Numbered from the stretch's first letter, positions 3,343-16,757 are shown. The stretch: 64,000 nt of DNA from Dictyostelium discoideum (GCA_000004695.1 CM000150.2:4352001-4416000); one strand, 5' to 3'. A program made the numbers and translations. The notes: generated from the letters alone by a model not told the origin.

Positions 3343-3700
3343 AAATTAAAATAAATAATTAAATTTTATTGTTAAATTTTAATTATTATGGTGATATAAT
3401 AATGTGTGGTTGTATTTATTATTTTTAGTGTGTGATAGAAAAAATGAAATCTATTTGTTTTTTTGTAAATCTCAAAATTATTAAAATTTTTATAATTTTA
3501 TAATTTTAATTTTGGGTTTATTTGTTTTTGTTTTTTTTTTTTGTTTTATTTTTTTTTTTTTTTTTTTTTAGGGCTTGGTTTATGATAATAAAAAATATTA
3601 ATAATAAAAATAATAATAATATAAATAATTATAAAAAATATTACCTTTGTGGTCCATTTACTTTTGCGAATTTCAAATAAATGTATTAATGTGTAAAAAT

Positions 3701-3744
<44 letters not shown>

Positions 3745-3969
3745 GTTTAAAGTGGAGTTTTAATATGTTACATTAATTACTGTTTTAAAATTTTGTTGTT
3801 GTTTTTGTTCTTAATTGTTATGATAAATGGTTTAAAAAATACATTTATTACCTGTTTATTTTTCAATGTTATTATATATGTTAAAAAAAAAAAAAAAAAA
3901 AAAAAAACAAAAAAAAAAAAAAAAAAAAAATTATTAAAAAAAAAAAAAAAAAAATATTAAAAAGTTAAA

Positions 3970-9925: not shown

Positions 9926-12077
9926 AGTTTATATTTTTACATACTTTTTTAAAAGATTATATATTTATTCAATTTTTTTATTTTTATTTTTATTTTTTTT
10001 TTTAGTGAAATGGATCCAGTATTAGATTCAACATCAGAAAATAATACAACTAGAAAGACTAGAGGTTCAAGAAATTCTAAAAAAGAACCAGAAGAACTTT
10101 TACTAACACCAGAACAAGCAAAAGAATTATCAAATAAAAGTAAAAAATGGATATATGTCCCAATTATTGAAGCAGAAGCCAAAAAAGAAGAAGTTCTTCC
10201 TGCAAAGAGAGATAGAAAACAAGTATTTAACGAAAATATATTTTCATCATCAAGAAAATCAACAACAAAAGGTGGTGAAAAGAAAAATGATACAGCATCA
10301 ACAACCAATACACCAATTATAACAGCACAACAAAATACTACACCATTATCACCAACACAAACAACAACAACAACAACAACACCAACAACAACCACTGCAC
10401 AACAAAATACACCAGCACAAACAGAATCAAAACCACCAACAACCATTTCAATAAATATTAAAGGATCAAAATCACCAAAAACAACTGGTGGTAAACAACA
10501 GAAACCAACTCCACCTTCACCAGTGGTTATATCACAACCAGTAGTCCCATCTACACCAGTAGTTGCTACTACTAAAAAAACAAATAGTAGATCTAAAAGG
10601 TCAACTGCAAACAACAACAGTGAAACCACACAAACACCAGAAGTTGTTATTTCAGCACCAACTACAACTACGGCTGCCATTACAACACCAATAAATATAA
10701 CACCATCTTCTGATTCTGCAACTATTCAACAATTACAACAATCAATTTCAATGTTGGAGGATAAAATAAGATTAATTAGCTCAAATAATAAAGTAGCAAC
10801 CGAAATTTTAAATAATACAATAACAACAACTACAACAACAGCAGCAACATCAGCAATAAAAGATGAAGAAATTATCGAAAATACAGAATTACAAACAACT
10901 TTTACAAAAAGTTCAACTTTAGCACCACCTTCATCAGAAAGAAAATATTCAAATTTATATAGCGATGACGAAGACGATACTGAAATGGTAGATGTCTCTG
11001 TATCAATACCAATACCAATACCAATACCAACACCAACTCAAACCACAACTAAAAAAACAACTTTATCAAAAAAAAGAAAATCGAATACATCAACTATAAT
11101 ACCCACAACAACAATACAACAAGAACAAGGACAAGAACAAGGGCAACAACAACCACCACAACAACAACAACCACCACAACAACAACAACCACCACAACAA
11201 CAACAACCACCACAACAACAACCACCACAACAATCAACTTCACCATCAAAAACACAACAAGAAAATACATCATCAACCACTACTACAACAACCACTACTA
11301 CAACAACAACAAATACAGAAGATACAACAACTGTTATAGATAAAAAGCCAAAAAAGAAACCAAGACATTCAGCTCCATTGATACCACAAATAAAACCAAG
11401 ACTTCCATTGAACGGAGGTTCAAGTGAAAGAGCACAAAGATCATCAAGAGGTAGAATGGGTAAGGCAATGAGAGATGTTGTTTTAACACCAGTATTTAAG
11501 AGATGTTTAGATCTCTTGGAAGAACTTTTTGAACATCAACATTCTCCACCTTTTCTCGTTGCTGTGGATCCATACGCATTGGGAATCTTGGATTACTTTG
11601 ACGTCATCAAGCATCCAATGGATCTTGGAACTATTAAAGCCTCACTTATAGGTGGAGGTTACGATACCATTGATAAATTTGCCGAGGATTGTCGTTTGGT
11701 ATTTTCAAATGCTAAAACCTATAATCCTTCAACAAACCCTGTACATATTATGGCACAAAGCCTCGAAGATGTTTTTGAAAAAGGATTCCCAAAGGTTTTA
11801 ATTGAACCACCTTCACCACCACCAAAGAATGTCGATCAAGAAAAAATTGAAAAACTTTCAAATGATTTAAAAAATGTTACAAAAGAATTGGAAAAATTTA
11901 AAAAAGATGATAGTAATAGTATTAATAATAATAATAACAATAATAATAATTATAATAATAATAATAATAATAACAATAATAATAGTAGCAGTAGTAGTAG
12001 TAGATCTTCAAGTAGAAAGAGTCATAGTAGTGGTAGCAGTAGTAGTCATAGAAGTGGATCAAGTCGTTCAAGTCGTG

Positions 12078-12117
<40 letters not shown>

Positions 12118-12976
12118 CAGTAGTAGTAGTAGTAGCAGCAGCAGCAGTAGTAATAATAAAAAATATCCAAAGGTTACAACTGAAGAGAAAACAAAATTAG
12201 GTGCTGAAATTACTCAATTACCTGTAGATTTATTACCATCGATTCTCCAAATCATTCATAATACCAATTCATTACCTGAGCAAAAACCAGGTAGTGAAGT
12301 TGTTATTGATTTAATGAAATTTGATGACGATATATTAAGAAGATTGAGTAAATTTGTTGAACAATATAAAAATGGCGAAATACCACAACATGCCTTACCA
12401 TTGTCTGCTCCATCCTCTACTCACAGTAGCCATAGTAGTAGTCATGATTCAAGTAGTAACATTAGAGAAATTGAAAAACTTCAAAAACAACTCGATCGTT
12501 TGGGTAAAGGTCAACAAAATAGTAGTAGTAGTAGTAGCAGTAGTTCACACAGTAAAAGAATTTCAAAACCAATTTCAAAAGCTCGTGGTCGTAAAGTAAT
12601 TTCAACTAGCTCTTCAAATTTAAATAATAGTAGTAATAATATTAATAATAATAATAATAATATTAATAATTATAATAATAATAATAATTATAATAACAAT
12701 AATAATAATAATTTAAATAATAACAATAACAATAATATTAATAGCAACCTAAATAATAATTTAAATAATAATAATAACAAAGATGATATTGTAATTGATG
12801 GTTTCAAAAAAGAAAATTTCTCGTCTATCCCTGAAAAGGATGTAGAGACTGATATAAGTGAGTCTAGTGATAGTGAAAGTGATAGTGAAAGTGGCTCATC
12901 CGATTCAAGTAGTTCATATTCTGATTCTGATTTTAGTGATAGTGATAATGATAGACGTAGAAATTATAATAATAGT

Positions 12977-13013
<37 letters not shown>

Positions 13014-13935
13014 GTAGTAATAATTTCAATAATCAAAATAATAGTTATAATAATAGTAACAATAATAATAATAATAATAGTAGTAATAATAATAATAATA
13101 ATAACAATAATAATAGCAATAATAATAATAGTAATAACAATAATAATAATGTTAATAATAATAATAATAATCATAATAATAATAATCATAATAATAATAT
13201 TAATAATAATAATAATAATATAAATAATAATACAACTCAACCATCGCCATCACAACAATCTACATCACTAACAAATGAACCAATCAAACCACCAACCATC
13301 TTACAAACAGTTAAAAAACCTGCACTTCCGGTGACTGGTTCTGTTGCATCATGGAGTTTTGATCCAACAAATAATAAAGAATCTTCCTCATCATCATCTA
13401 CATCATCCACATCATCTACATCGAATACAACTTTAACACCAATCATTCAACAATCATCACTTACACATGCATCATCACCAATTTCTTCTTCAACATTTGT
13501 TTCCTTTTCATCTTCATCCTCAACCCCACCAACTAATAACTTATCTCCACCATCACCAGGTCTCCCAAATTCACCATCTATTAATTCACCATCCTCTCCA
13601 AGTGCAAATAATAATAATACCGATTCAGCATGGAACCATTTTAAAGCAAAGAATATTACATTAAAACAAAAGGAGAAAGAACGTGTTTTACAAGAAGAGG
13701 TATTAAGAAAAGAAAGAGAAGAAAAAGAAGAAGAACTTAAAAAAGAAGAAGAAAAGAAAAGAATTGAGATGGAAGAAATTAAAAGATTGGCAAAGGAGAA
13801 AGAAGAAAGAGAAGCTGAAGAAACAAGAAAACAAATTGAGTCTGAAAGAGCTGCTGCTAGAGAAGCAAGGGAAAAAGAAAAAGTATATTTTTATTTATAT
13901 AAATATACATATATATTTTTGTGAAAATCCACTAA

Positions 13936-14497: not shown

Positions 14498-14914
14498 TCA
14501 CTTTAAAATTTTTTCAATAAAATCTTGGATTATTTTAATTGCTTTCTTTTCCCTATCTTCATAAGAACCATCCAATAAATTATATTCTATTTCAAATTCT
14601 TTACATTTTTCAATTAATTTAGATTGAAATAATTCTCTTTCTTTTTCTTCTGGAATTAATCTAAGTTCGTCACTTTTTAAAAAATAAAATAAAGATTAAT
14701 ATTTAATTTTTCAGTAATAAATAAATAATAAATAATAAATAATAAAACTATAATTATTTTTTAATTTCTTACTTTACCCATTTAGTTTTATAATCTAAAA
14801 ATAGATATAAGTCATATTTACTTTCTTTTGCAATTTTTAGTAATTCATTGGAATAATATCCAATTAATTTATCACTCCACTTTTTTTGTTTTTTTTTTTC
14901 AAAAAATTTATTTA

Positions 14915-14948
<34 letters not shown>

Positions 14949-15403
14949 GTTAATAATGGTAAATAATTTTCTGTTTTAAAAAAAAAAATTAAAAAAAATA
15001 ATATTTACAAGTAAAGTTACTAAAGGACATGTATCACAGATTAAAAAATTTGGATTATTATTTCTATCTATTGATAACTTTTCTAAATCTAATTGACCAT
15101 TCGCAACATTTAAAAAATCACTTTCGCCTATTTATAGTTTAAAAAAGAAAAATTGTTATTAGAACGAAATTAAAATTTTTAATAAAAAAAAAAAAAATAA
15201 AAAAAATAAAAAAAATAAAAAAAATAAAAAAAAACAATAATTAAAGACTTACAAAATGGATTTTTATCAAAATCTCTATTTTTAAAATATTCAATTGCAT
15301 ATTCCTCAACCCAAGGGCGATTAAAATATTTTGATAAACTTTTTGAAATTGTTGTTTTAAATGTTGATTCACCACCAATAATACAAATTTTTTTGGTTTT
15401 CAT
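14498..15403 (-). CDS. NadR-type ribosylnicotinamide kinase (AAA_28) domain protein, about 185 aa. Four exons on the minus strand: 15403..15253, 15127..15009, 14879..14773 and 14672..14498.
   Basis: The assembled protein is MKTKKICIIGGESTFKTTISKSLSKYFNRPWVEEYAIEYFKNRDFDKNPF-C-ESDFLNVANGQLDLEKLSIDRNNNPNFLICDTCPLVTL-WSDKLIGYYSNELLKIAKESKYDLYLFLDYKTKWV-N-DELRLIPEEKERELFQSKLIEKCKEFEIEYNLLDGSYEDREKKAIKIIQDFIEKILK. It aligns along its whole length with the C-terminal RNK domain of bacterial NadR (GGESSGKS...WEYGREF...IDTD...EWVDDGLR). The donors are GTAAGT, GTAAAT and GTAAGA, and the phases are consistent (1,0,2). Confidence 0.75.
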
Positions 15404-15708
15404 TTATTTTTTTGGTTTGAATGTGTGTTGGTGAAATAAAGAAGAAAAAAAAAAAAAAAAAAAAAAAAGGATTGTGAATGGGTGTCTATTAATATGATTA
15501 TTGATTTATATTGTTTTGTTTATTGATGGCGAAAAATGAAAAAAAAAAAATTGAAAAAAATTAAAAAACGAAAAATAAAAAAAAGATATTTTTTTAGTTT
15601 TGAGAAATGGGTTGTGTTTTTTTAAAAAAAAAAAAAGTGGGAATAAAATTATTACTAAACATAACAAAAGAAGTTTTTTTTTTTAACACACCTAAATTTT
15701 TATTTAAG

Positions 15709-15767
15709 AGATTCAAATATTAACTATTCGTTTTTTGACAGATTCAAATATTAACTATTCGTTTTTT
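15709..15767. repeat. Tandem duplication of a 28-bp motif agattcaaatattaactattcgtttttt (two units separated by gac)
   Basis: Seen directly in the divergent promoter between the NadR-like gene (minus, ATG 15403) and aprt (plus, ATG 16158). Confidence 0.8.
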
Positions 15768-16121
15768 TTTTTTTTTTTTTTTTTTTTTCAAAGTCAGGTC
15801 GGAAAATGTAAATGAATTTTTAAAAATCTCCTTTAGACCAAAAAAAATAAAATGGTAATGGTCCCATTACCCCCGATTAATAAAATTTTTTTTTTTTTTC
15901 AGTTTTTTTTTTTTTATTTTTCAACAATTTTTTATTTTTTTTTTTTTATTTTTTTTTTTTTTCTCTCTTTATTTCACCAACACACATTCAAACCACACAA
16001 ATACATATATATATTTTTTTTTTATTTCTAAAAATATTACTTTTATTTTTTTAAAAATAAAAAAAAAAAAAAAAAATAAAAAAATAAAAAAATAATAAAA
16101 TAAAAATAATAATAATAATAA

Positions 16122-16155
<34 letters not shown>

Positions 16156-16157
16156 TA

Positions 16158-16757
16158 ATGCAAGAATCTAAATACCAAGAATTACAAAAACAAGCAGAAA
16201 AATCAGTTAAGGAATCAATGACATTATTCCAGGATTGGCCAAATAAAGGTGTTGGATTTCAAGATATTTCAAATCTATTTTTATGTTATGATAAATTTTC
16301 AGATGTTTTAGATTATTATGAACATAGATTTAGTGATGTTGATTTAGTAGTGGGACTTGAAGCTAGAGGTTTCATATTGGGTACAGCATTTGCACAACGT
16401 ATGAAATTACCAATGATGATGATTAGAAAGAAGGGAAAATTACCAGGTCCATGTTTCCGTGAATCTTATAAAAAGGAGTATGGAACTGATGAATTTGAAG
16501 TTCAAGAGAAAGCTTTATCAAAAGTTGTAGTAAAACCTTCTAAAAAATATCACGTATTAATCATGGACGATATTTTGGCCCCTGGTGGTACAATGGCTGC
16601 TTCCATAGAGTTGACAAAAAAAGTATTAATAAATAATGGAATTAAAGATTTCAAAATTTCAACTTCTCTCATCAGTAGTATTAAAGTATTAAATGGTAAA
16701 GAAAAAATTTATGAAAAATATAATGATGTCAGTGTTGATATTATAATTGAAATGTAA
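16158..16757 (+). CDS. aprt: Adenine phosphoribosyltransferase (APRT), single exon
   Basis: The 199-aa ORF carries the PRTase type I signature VLIMDDILAPGGTMAA and the upstream VVGLEARGFILGTAFAQ. It is collinear with APRTs from bacteria to mammals. Confidence 0.93.
   Translation: MQESKYQELQKQAEKSVKESMTLFQDWPNKGVGFQDISNLFLCYDKFSDVLDYYEHRFSDVDLVVGLEARGFILGTAFAQRMKLPMMMIRKKGKLPGPCFRESYKKEYGTDEFEVQEKALSKVVVKPSKKYHVLIMDDILAPGGTMAASIELTKKVLINNGIKDFKISTSLISSIKVLNGKEKIYEKYNDVSVDIIIEM

Follow-up and report, generated by a model that had tools for sequence, protein, structure and literature searches.

The gene considered here, DDB_G0270172 of Dictyostelium discoideum AX4, lies at positions 14498–15403 on the minus strand of a 64,000-nucleotide (nt) stretch of the genome (GCA_000004695.1 CM000150.2:4352001-4416000), which was analysed as a whole and is called the window below; its overall guanine-plus-cytosine (GC) content is about 20%. 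Four exons join into one clean open reading frame (ORF) of 183 amino acids, and an exact-sequence look-up identifies the product as XP_646598.1 (UniProt Q55C83), which carries the database name "NadR/Ttd14 AAA domain-containing protein". Both the gene and its domain had thus been annotated before; apparently new are an aromatic residue conserved in place of the second glycine of the P-loop, the phylogenetic pattern of this variant, and a deep pairing of the gene with a gene for adenine phosphoribosyltransferase (APRT). Our literature search found no paper on DDB_G0270172, on Q55C83 or on a Dictyostelium nicotinamide riboside (NR) kinase, and a search on PF13521 or AAA_28 returned unrelated accession-like matches only. 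The parts of the gene, in window coordinates, are the following.

15253–15403, minus strand: exon 1, codons 1–50 and base 1 of codon 51, with the ATG at 15403–15401, the Walker A motif and the donor GTAAGT
15350–15376, minus strand: Walker A motif (P-loop), codons 10–18, GGESTFKTT, with Phe15 (TTT) at 15359–15361 and Lys16 (AAA) at 15356–15358
15293–15295, minus strand: codon 37, Ile, in place of an Arg that is invariant in 98 bacterial homologues
15128–15252, minus strand: intron 1, 125 nt, phase 1, within the Cys51 codon, GC 8.8%
15009–15127, minus strand: exon 2, codons 51–90, with the Walker B-like motif ICDTC (Asp82)
14880–15008, minus strand: intron 2, 129 nt, phase 0, at the Leu90/Trp91 boundary, GC 8.5%, with a long poly-A tract inside
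14773–14879, minus strand: exon 3, codons 91–126
14673–14772, minus strand: intron 3, 100 nt, phase 2, in codon 126 (KWV/NDELR), GC 7%
14498–14672, minus strand: exon 4, codons 126–183 and the TGA stop (14498–14500), with the lid motif WVNDELR (Asp127, Arg130)

All three introns run from GT to AG and have a GC content of 7–9%, compared with 21–25% in the exons. A preliminary description of this stretch had proposed a four-exon gene with three GT-AG introns of host-like, AT-rich composition, and the ORF and base composition bear this out; the 185 amino acids that it gave for the product have to be corrected to 183, the length of the spliced ORF and of XP_646598.1. An alternative acceptor for intron 2 (aaaacag, just before 14971) was rejected because its use introduces in-frame stop codons, so that the poly-A tract belongs to the intron. 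Alignments with the ribosylnicotinamide-kinase (RNK) domains of NadR proteins of known structure (9x6f, 8x7f, 6gye and 1lw7) show no insertion or deletion at any of the three exon junctions, and this collinearity is an independent check on the splice model.

DDB_G0270172 encodes a protein with one domain, a stand-alone homologue of the RNK domain of bacterial NadR. Its sole Pfam match is PF13521 (AAA_28), with a score of 140.7 bits (E=6.4e-41, cutoff 27) over profile positions 1–164 of 164; Tieghemostelium lacteum scores 132.4 bits and a bacterial member 129, and the scores of all other amoebozoan orthologues range from 92 to 138 bits. The NadR equivalogs TIGR01526 and NF005988 are matched in their C-terminal third alone and far below cutoff (99 bits versus 341 and 73.5 versus 201). 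Sequence matches in the PDB are NadR proteins only (the four named above, E=1e-11 to 1e-14). The AF2 model, for which 107 sequences were aligned (pLDDT 94, pTM 0.89), has NadR RNK domains as its best Foldseek matches in the PDB, with TMq 0.74–0.86 (8x7f at TMq 0.86 and a root-mean-square deviation of 2.4 Å; 1lw7; the 6gy* entries), followed by thymidylate and deoxynucleoside kinases; no NRK1/2 structure was found within the best 50 fold matches. The end-to-end homology with the NadR RNK domain that had been proposed is thus upheld by profile, sequence and structure, and the profile search assigned the protein to AAA_28, with no match to a eukaryotic kinase family. The NadR RNK domains of Haemophilus influenzae (1LW7) and Lactococcus lactis (6GYE), like 8X7F, have the same fold, align collinearly over the whole domain and share with the amoeba protein the Walker A Lys/Thr, the Walker B Asp and the Arg of the lid motif WxxD(G/E)LR. 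The amoeba protein differs from NadR in that it stands alone, without a nicotinamide-mononucleotide adenylyltransferase (NMNAT) or a helix–turn–helix domain, in having Phe for the Walker A Gly and Ile for Arg37, and in being encoded by a eukaryotic, intron-bearing gene. Nrk1 and Nrk2 are also P-loop kinases, and the conversion of NR and ATP to nicotinamide mononucleotide (NMN) is the presumed ancestral reaction of both kinds of protein, but they belong to a different family, as seen from the Pfam and fold comparisons.

The preliminary description had also called the domain essentially prokaryotic. This is too strong, because AAA_28 exists in animals, in Drosophila TTD14 and its invertebrate orthologues (PMC4624897); the InterPro name of PF13521 is NadR/Ttd14, and the gene is present in the variosean Soliformovum and on a eukaryote-like contig as well. 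TTD14 resembles the amoeba protein as a eukaryotic carrier of the same Pfam and InterPro P-loop domain. It has a non-kinase role, binding GTP and phosphatidylinositol 3-phosphate and acting in TRPL trafficking, and it is a 475-amino-acid protein with an added CYTH domain and a bona fide GxxxxGKT motif (PMC4624897), whereas the amoeba protein has 183 amino acids, a single domain and Phe15.

The glycine that precedes the Walker A lysine is among the most conserved residues in biology. In the D. discoideum protein the motif reads GGESTFKTT, which departs from the canonical GxxxxGK[ST] at exactly this residue. The replacement of Gly by Phe had been noticed before and is real, although it had been assigned to codon 14 and is in fact at residue 15, next to Lys16. 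TTT stands in the reference, and Phe or Tyr is fixed at this position in nine species (Groups 1, 2 and 4 and P. violaceum), encoded by TTT, TTC, TAT or TAC, so that an assembly error at codon 15 is rejected. Phe is encoded by TTT in D. discoideum, D. dimigraforme, Heterostelium album and Acytostelium subglobosum and by TTC in D. purpureum, while Tyr is encoded by TAT in D. firmibasis and by TAC in Cavenderia fasciculata and P. violaceum, where it lies in an N-terminal exon overlooked by the annotation. Residue 15 is Gly in the Group 3 species T. lacteum (GGT), in the transcriptome of Soliformovum irregulare (Variosea) and in two further relatives. It is also Gly in about 375 of the 377 other homologues retrieved; one of the two exceptions has Ala and the other has Trp, in a Flavobacteriaceae protein from a metagenome-assembled genome (MAG), encoded in a pnuC operon by a codon one nucleotide away from Gly. 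Dictyostelia are commonly split into Groups 1+2 and Groups 3+4, and the order assignments of the species are consistent with this split. On a tree split in this way, the distribution of residue 15 takes no fewer than two events: an aromatic residue was gained twice, or it was gained once and reverted in Tieghemostelium. Each event requires two nucleotide changes.

A mutation at the equivalent position of the motif in RAS, G15A, is a standard means of reducing nucleotide affinity (PMC8936000). The RAS mutation is engineered and affects a GTPase, whereas the amoeba change is natural, introduces a bulky aromatic residue and has been fixed for a very long time. A paper on the engineering of NRK (PMC13256911) does not address this position of the P-loop. 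Separately, six bacterial NadR-like proteins (P0212, P0235, P0243, P0257, P0275 and P0213) were observed to have kept the Gly and lost the Walker A lysine, with motifs such as GAESTGTTT, GAESTGSTT and GPESSGNTT, which indicates that degenerate P-loops arose more than once in the AAA_28 family.

Conservation of the other residues was scored against an alignment of 98 bacterial sequences, in which G10, E12, G15, K16, L23, E34, A36, R37, D82, T83, Y112, W124, D127, R130, P133, R138 and R166 are 100% conserved. The D. discoideum protein keeps every one of these except G15, which is Phe, and R37, which is Ile. In the alignment with L. lactis NadR, K16 and T17 fall in Walker A (187–195), D82 in Walker B (254–260) and D127 and R130 in the lid (304–318), and K16, T17, D82 and R130 are common to all dictyostelids, as is D127 apart from C. 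fasciculata. Arg37 is Ile in D. discoideum, D. firmibasis, D. dimigraforme and C. fasciculata; it is kept in D. purpureum, Heterostelium, Acytostelium, P. violaceum and all Gly-bearing amoebozoan sequences (T. lacteum, Soliformovum). It was therefore lost twice, in the discoideum/firmibasis/dimigraforme clade and in C. fasciculata, both of which are Phe/Tyr lineages, and judging from this pattern a second, normally invariant residue appears to have become dispensable. A general decay of the family signature was looked for in the Phe/Tyr lineages and not seen, their Pfam scores being close to those of the Gly-bearing orthologues; the exception is C. fasciculata, which shows further erosion (W31Y, Y115C, D127E and P133E) and scores 92.6 bits.

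The gene evolves under constraint. Among four Group 4 species the pairwise ratio of nonsynonymous to synonymous substitution rates (dN/dS) is 0.12–0.22, and the coding sequence is 71–86% identical compared with 27–51% for the introns, whose positions and phases are identical and whose lengths vary from 83 to 292 nt. Intron 1 is found at the same codon and phase in D. purpureum, D. firmibasis, D. dimigraforme, P. violaceum, T. lacteum and C. fasciculata, and the position of intron 2 is common to Groups 1, 3 and 4 and P. violaceum; intron 3 was seen in Group 4 and P. violaceum only, T. lacteum and C. fasciculata having no intron there. The GC content at third codon positions (GC3) is 10%, as in the neighbouring genes, compared with 27–44% in the bacterial homologues. 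The surroundings of the gene are conserved as well. In every dictyostelid locus that we fetched, it stands head-to-head with a PF00156 phosphoribosyltransferase of 195–203 amino acids and is convergent with a large gene, which in the window is a bromodomain ORF at 10010–13924. The window features on the divergent side are the following.

15404–16157, no strand: divergent promoter region shared by the AAA_28 and APRT genes, 754 bp, with a 64-nt inverted repeat
16158–16757, plus strand: APRT, 199 amino acids, NCBIfam NF002636 at 144.8 bits versus a cutoff of 125

The order bromodomain gene (convergent), AAA_28 gene, APRT gene (divergent) is found in all four groups and in P. violaceum, with synteny in ten genomes. 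Microsynteny this deep is unusual in these genomes; the three-gene arrangement hints that APRT and the AAA_28 gene are regulated together.

The combination of a bacterial-type domain and a broken motif might have resulted from bacterial contamination of the assembly, from a decaying pseudogene or from a sequencing error at codon 15. That oddity was the only reason to think so, and we give the idea practically no weight: the gene has three spliceosomal introns and eukaryotic neighbours in a window of 20% GC, it is syntenic in ten dictyostelid genomes from independent projects with intact ORFs, its dN/dS is well below 1 and Phe or Tyr is present in nine species. The comparative data refute it. 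DDB_G0270172 is a genuine, spliced and selectively constrained gene, and there is hardly any doubt about its identity, its age or the substitution itself. The proposal that it is old and domesticated is likewise confirmed, by its presence in all four dictyostelid groups, the two shared introns, the conserved neighbours, the GC3 and the dN/dS values.

The closest relatives outside Amoebozoa were sought with HMMER in an exhaustive search of 1.84 billion representative proteins, of which the best 150 matches were considered. With a Dictyostelium-only profile the other dictyostelids come first (209, 208 and 147 bits); the P. violaceum fragment and Soliformovum stand at about 120 bits, together with stand-alone proteins from bacteria or metagenomes, and NadR fusions come next. 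Of the best 150 matches to this profile, none could be named as animal or fungal, and none was TTD14-like. An Amoebozoa-wide profile leaves a gap between amoebozoan-type proteins, at 208 bits or more, and bacteria, at 154 bits or less, the bacteria that could be named being Cyclobacteriaceae, Flavobacteriaceae and Sphingobacteriales. A scan of species-representative prokaryotic genomes (GTDB) gave at least 566 relatives, the best 80 of which are 30–39% identical and mostly from Bacteroidota, a ranking that is biased because the search patterns came from a Bacteroidota-dominated alignment. A locus search with T. lacteum alone as the query gave no match. At 65 of the 80 best bacterial loci, the AAA_28 gene starts within a few tens of bases of the end of a pnuC homologue that lies upstream of it, which is strong evidence from context that the stand-alone bacterial proteins are nicotinamide-riboside kinases. 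These proteins, for example in Ferruginibacter, Fontibacter and Flavobacterium, are annotated as "AAA family ATPase" or "nicotinamide riboside kinase"; like the amoeba protein they have a single domain and about 170–190 amino acids, and at 30–40% identity they are the closest non-amoebozoan sequences. They differ from it in their canonical GPESTGK[ST] motif, their Arg37 and their linkage to pnuC, whereas the amoeba gene has no transporter partner, is head-to-head with APRT and encodes a 3-residue insertion and the motif RD[FL]xxxPF.

This motif bears on the origin of the gene. The segment from EYAxxY to a conserved GQ has 21 residues, including RD[FL]xxxPF, in all dictyostelids, in Soliformovum and in two further proteins, P0283 and P0145. 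The spacing and motif occur in none of the other homologues retrieved (about 375), which are bacterial wherever the source names them. P0283 is an environmental sequence from a 33%-GC contig with a long untranslated tail, and P0145 is encoded on 31%-GC contigs beside a eukaryote-specific RMD1-3 gene. The shared spacing and motif point to a single origin of the amoebozoan-type gene before the split of Dictyostelia and Variosea. The AT-rich contigs (31–33% GC) from Logan (SRR10663368/65) and JGI (3300030548), one of them with the RMD1-3 neighbour, carry intronless genes whose proteins have the canonical Gly and RD[FL]xxxPF; these contigs probably represent further protist lineages with the amoebozoan-type gene.

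A bacterial origin is plausible and would be old, and horizontal transfer is the most economical reading of these comparisons because the nearest non-amoebozoan matches are bacterial stand-alone proteins. True integration into the host is seen in the introns, the base composition, the eukaryotic neighbours and the synteny in ten genomes. A neighbour-joining distance tree with 200 bootstraps supports the monophyly of dictyostelids (92%), Group 4 (98%) and Groups 1+2 (93%). In the same tree, which has no Ttd14-type or fungal AAA_28 sequences, Soliformovum is not joined to the dictyostelids (7.5%), and any bacterial sister group receives 1%. The antiquity and the domestication put forward in the preliminary description stand; the transfer itself is unproven. 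The alternative is vertical descent from an ancient eukaryotic AAA_28 gene, of the stock of TTD14, that most eukaryotes have lost. The existence of TTD14 in animals, the presence of the gene in two classes of Evosea and on a eukaryote-like contig, and the lack of support for a bacterial sister group are all compatible with it. We nevertheless consider it unlikely, since every nameable match that follows the amoebozoan-type proteins is bacterial, with no animal or fungal protein among the best 150, and since the single domain and the length fit the bacterial stand-alone proteins and not the 475-amino-acid TTD14 with its CYTH domain.

The activity state of the D. discoideum protein is about evenly balanced when judged from its sequence. 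The preliminary description had suggested a pseudo-kinase or a binding protein instead of an NR kinase; the idea is reasonable, and the comparative evidence speaks both for and against it. As a whole, the explanation to which we lean, slightly, is that of a domesticated RNK homologue that has been weakened or re-purposed, rather than that of an efficient NR kinase. The ancestral job of the protein was almost certainly the trapping of imported NR as NMN, because the close bacterial relatives usually lie directly after pnuC. The gene entered, or was inherited by, an amoebozoan ancestor that predates the radiation of the dictyostelids, and the 3-residue insertion and the motif suggest its presence in the ancestor shared with Soliformovum. 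It then acquired at least two introns and the full base composition of the host, as seen in Dictyostelia, and in most dictyostelids the Walker A Gly before the catalytic lysine changed to Phe or Tyr. Phe15 probably changes the geometry of the active site. The D. discoideum protein may still hold a phosphate-bearing ligand through the Lys and Thr of the P-loop, the Walker B Asp and the lid Arg, and the strong constraint on these residues indicates clearly that the site is still used. Gly15Phe together with Arg37Ile could have produced a low-affinity nucleoside kinase or a protein that binds nucleotides or precursors of nicotinamide adenine dinucleotide (NAD).

Several considerations count against a weakened or re-purposed protein. 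The strong purifying selection on the other catalytic residues fits a fully active kinase equally well, and the canonical Gly of the syntenic T. lacteum orthologue shows that the two states interconvert on an unchanged scaffold. The Trp of the Flavobacteriaceae homologue in a pnuC operon, a single sequence, hints that an aromatic residue is perhaps tolerated. In addition, the splice model is based on comparative evidence and database annotation, not on RNA reads, and our literature search found no biochemical or expression data for DDB_G0270172. The protein might therefore be a fully active kinase for NR or another nucleoside, in which the aromatic P-loop residue is tolerated or adaptive and which converts NR from digested bacteria to NMN, the same job as that of the pnuC-linked bacterial relatives. 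This would agree with the invariance of K16, T17, D82, R130, R138 and R166 across dictyostelids, with the dN/dS values and with a family signature free of general decay. It would also agree with the interchange of states, Gly and Phe/Tyr orthologues having the same synteny and introns, and with the fact that an aromatic residue arose two or three times at residue 15 if the bacterial Trp is included. This possibility is a serious one that we nonetheless hold to be somewhat doubtful: Gly is present in about 99.5% of homologues, even a change from Gly to Ala lowers nucleotide affinity in RAS (PMC8936000), and D. discoideum additionally lacks the bacterially invariant Arg37. A further idea, which we regard as improbable, is that GxxxxΦK[ST], with Phe or Tyr for the second Gly, would be a functional non-canonical P-loop, selected in a kinase of bacterial derivation, possibly twice independently, and kept in most Dictyostelia, that gave an NR kinase a new ligand or role; the resulting protein would be co-regulated with APRT through the divergent promoter, which is an ancient one, and may for example act as a sensor or a low-affinity buffer of NAD precursors or adenine nucleotides.

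Whatever the activity of the weakened or re-purposed homologue that we favour, a bulky aromatic residue at the Walker A Gly is here natural and long-lived, in an otherwise fully constrained protein, and the Gly-bearing T. lacteum orthologue is a built-in control. The dictyostelid proteins offer a clean system in which to ask how far the geometry of a P-loop may shift while nucleotide binding and catalysis persist, and how enzymes gradually become pseudo-enzymes. The gene would also be an example, and a well-dated one, of how bacterivorous amoebae domesticate a NAD-salvage gene of bacterial type, and DDB_G0270172 is flagged as a gene that may matter for the salvage of NAD precursors in Dictyostelium. 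With the gene annotated already, the matter is of modest practical importance.

The promoter region shared with APRT has features of its own. Its inverted repeat (15405–15468 and 15940–16003, 64 nt, 91% complementary) contains the exact 23-mer TTTCACCAACACACATTCAAACC once per strand, compared with 0 expected by chance, and through it the same T-run and leader precede the AAA_28 gene as well as APRT. The corresponding intergenic regions of five other species were searched for the repeat without a match. Between its arms, at 15710–15767, GATTCAAATATTAACTATTCGTTTTTT is tandemly repeated with a period of 31 nt.

Observations were also made on three gene models of other dictyostelids. The P. violaceum model CYY_007307 (121 amino acids, AJWJ01000382.1) is truncated; the unannotated exon 1 upstream, at about 3677–3820 of the locus, encodes KICVIGGESVYKSTLCQKLSEIFKCPWVKEYARDYLQDRDFDKNPFC, and intron 1 comes after it where the other species have it. 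In A. subglobosum the N-terminal extension of the annotated model (211 amino acids, "partial") is doubtful; no chain of exons with GT-AG boundaries reproduced the model, and the intron comparisons leave this species out. For C. fasciculata the annotation gives a third intron that is peculiar to this lineage and lies only 17 nt ahead of the stop codon; it may be an artefact of annotation.

Finally, AAA_28 occurs in other bacterial arrangements. The Flavobacteriaceae MAG operon has the order pnuC, AAA_28, DUF4301, and in P0144 (705 amino acids) AAA_28 may be fused to a C-terminal part that resembles DUF4301. A protein from a Legionella MAG (1326 amino acids), annotated as containing an amino-acid adenylation domain, matches the AAA_28 profile in its C-terminal part, at residues 1155–1322.

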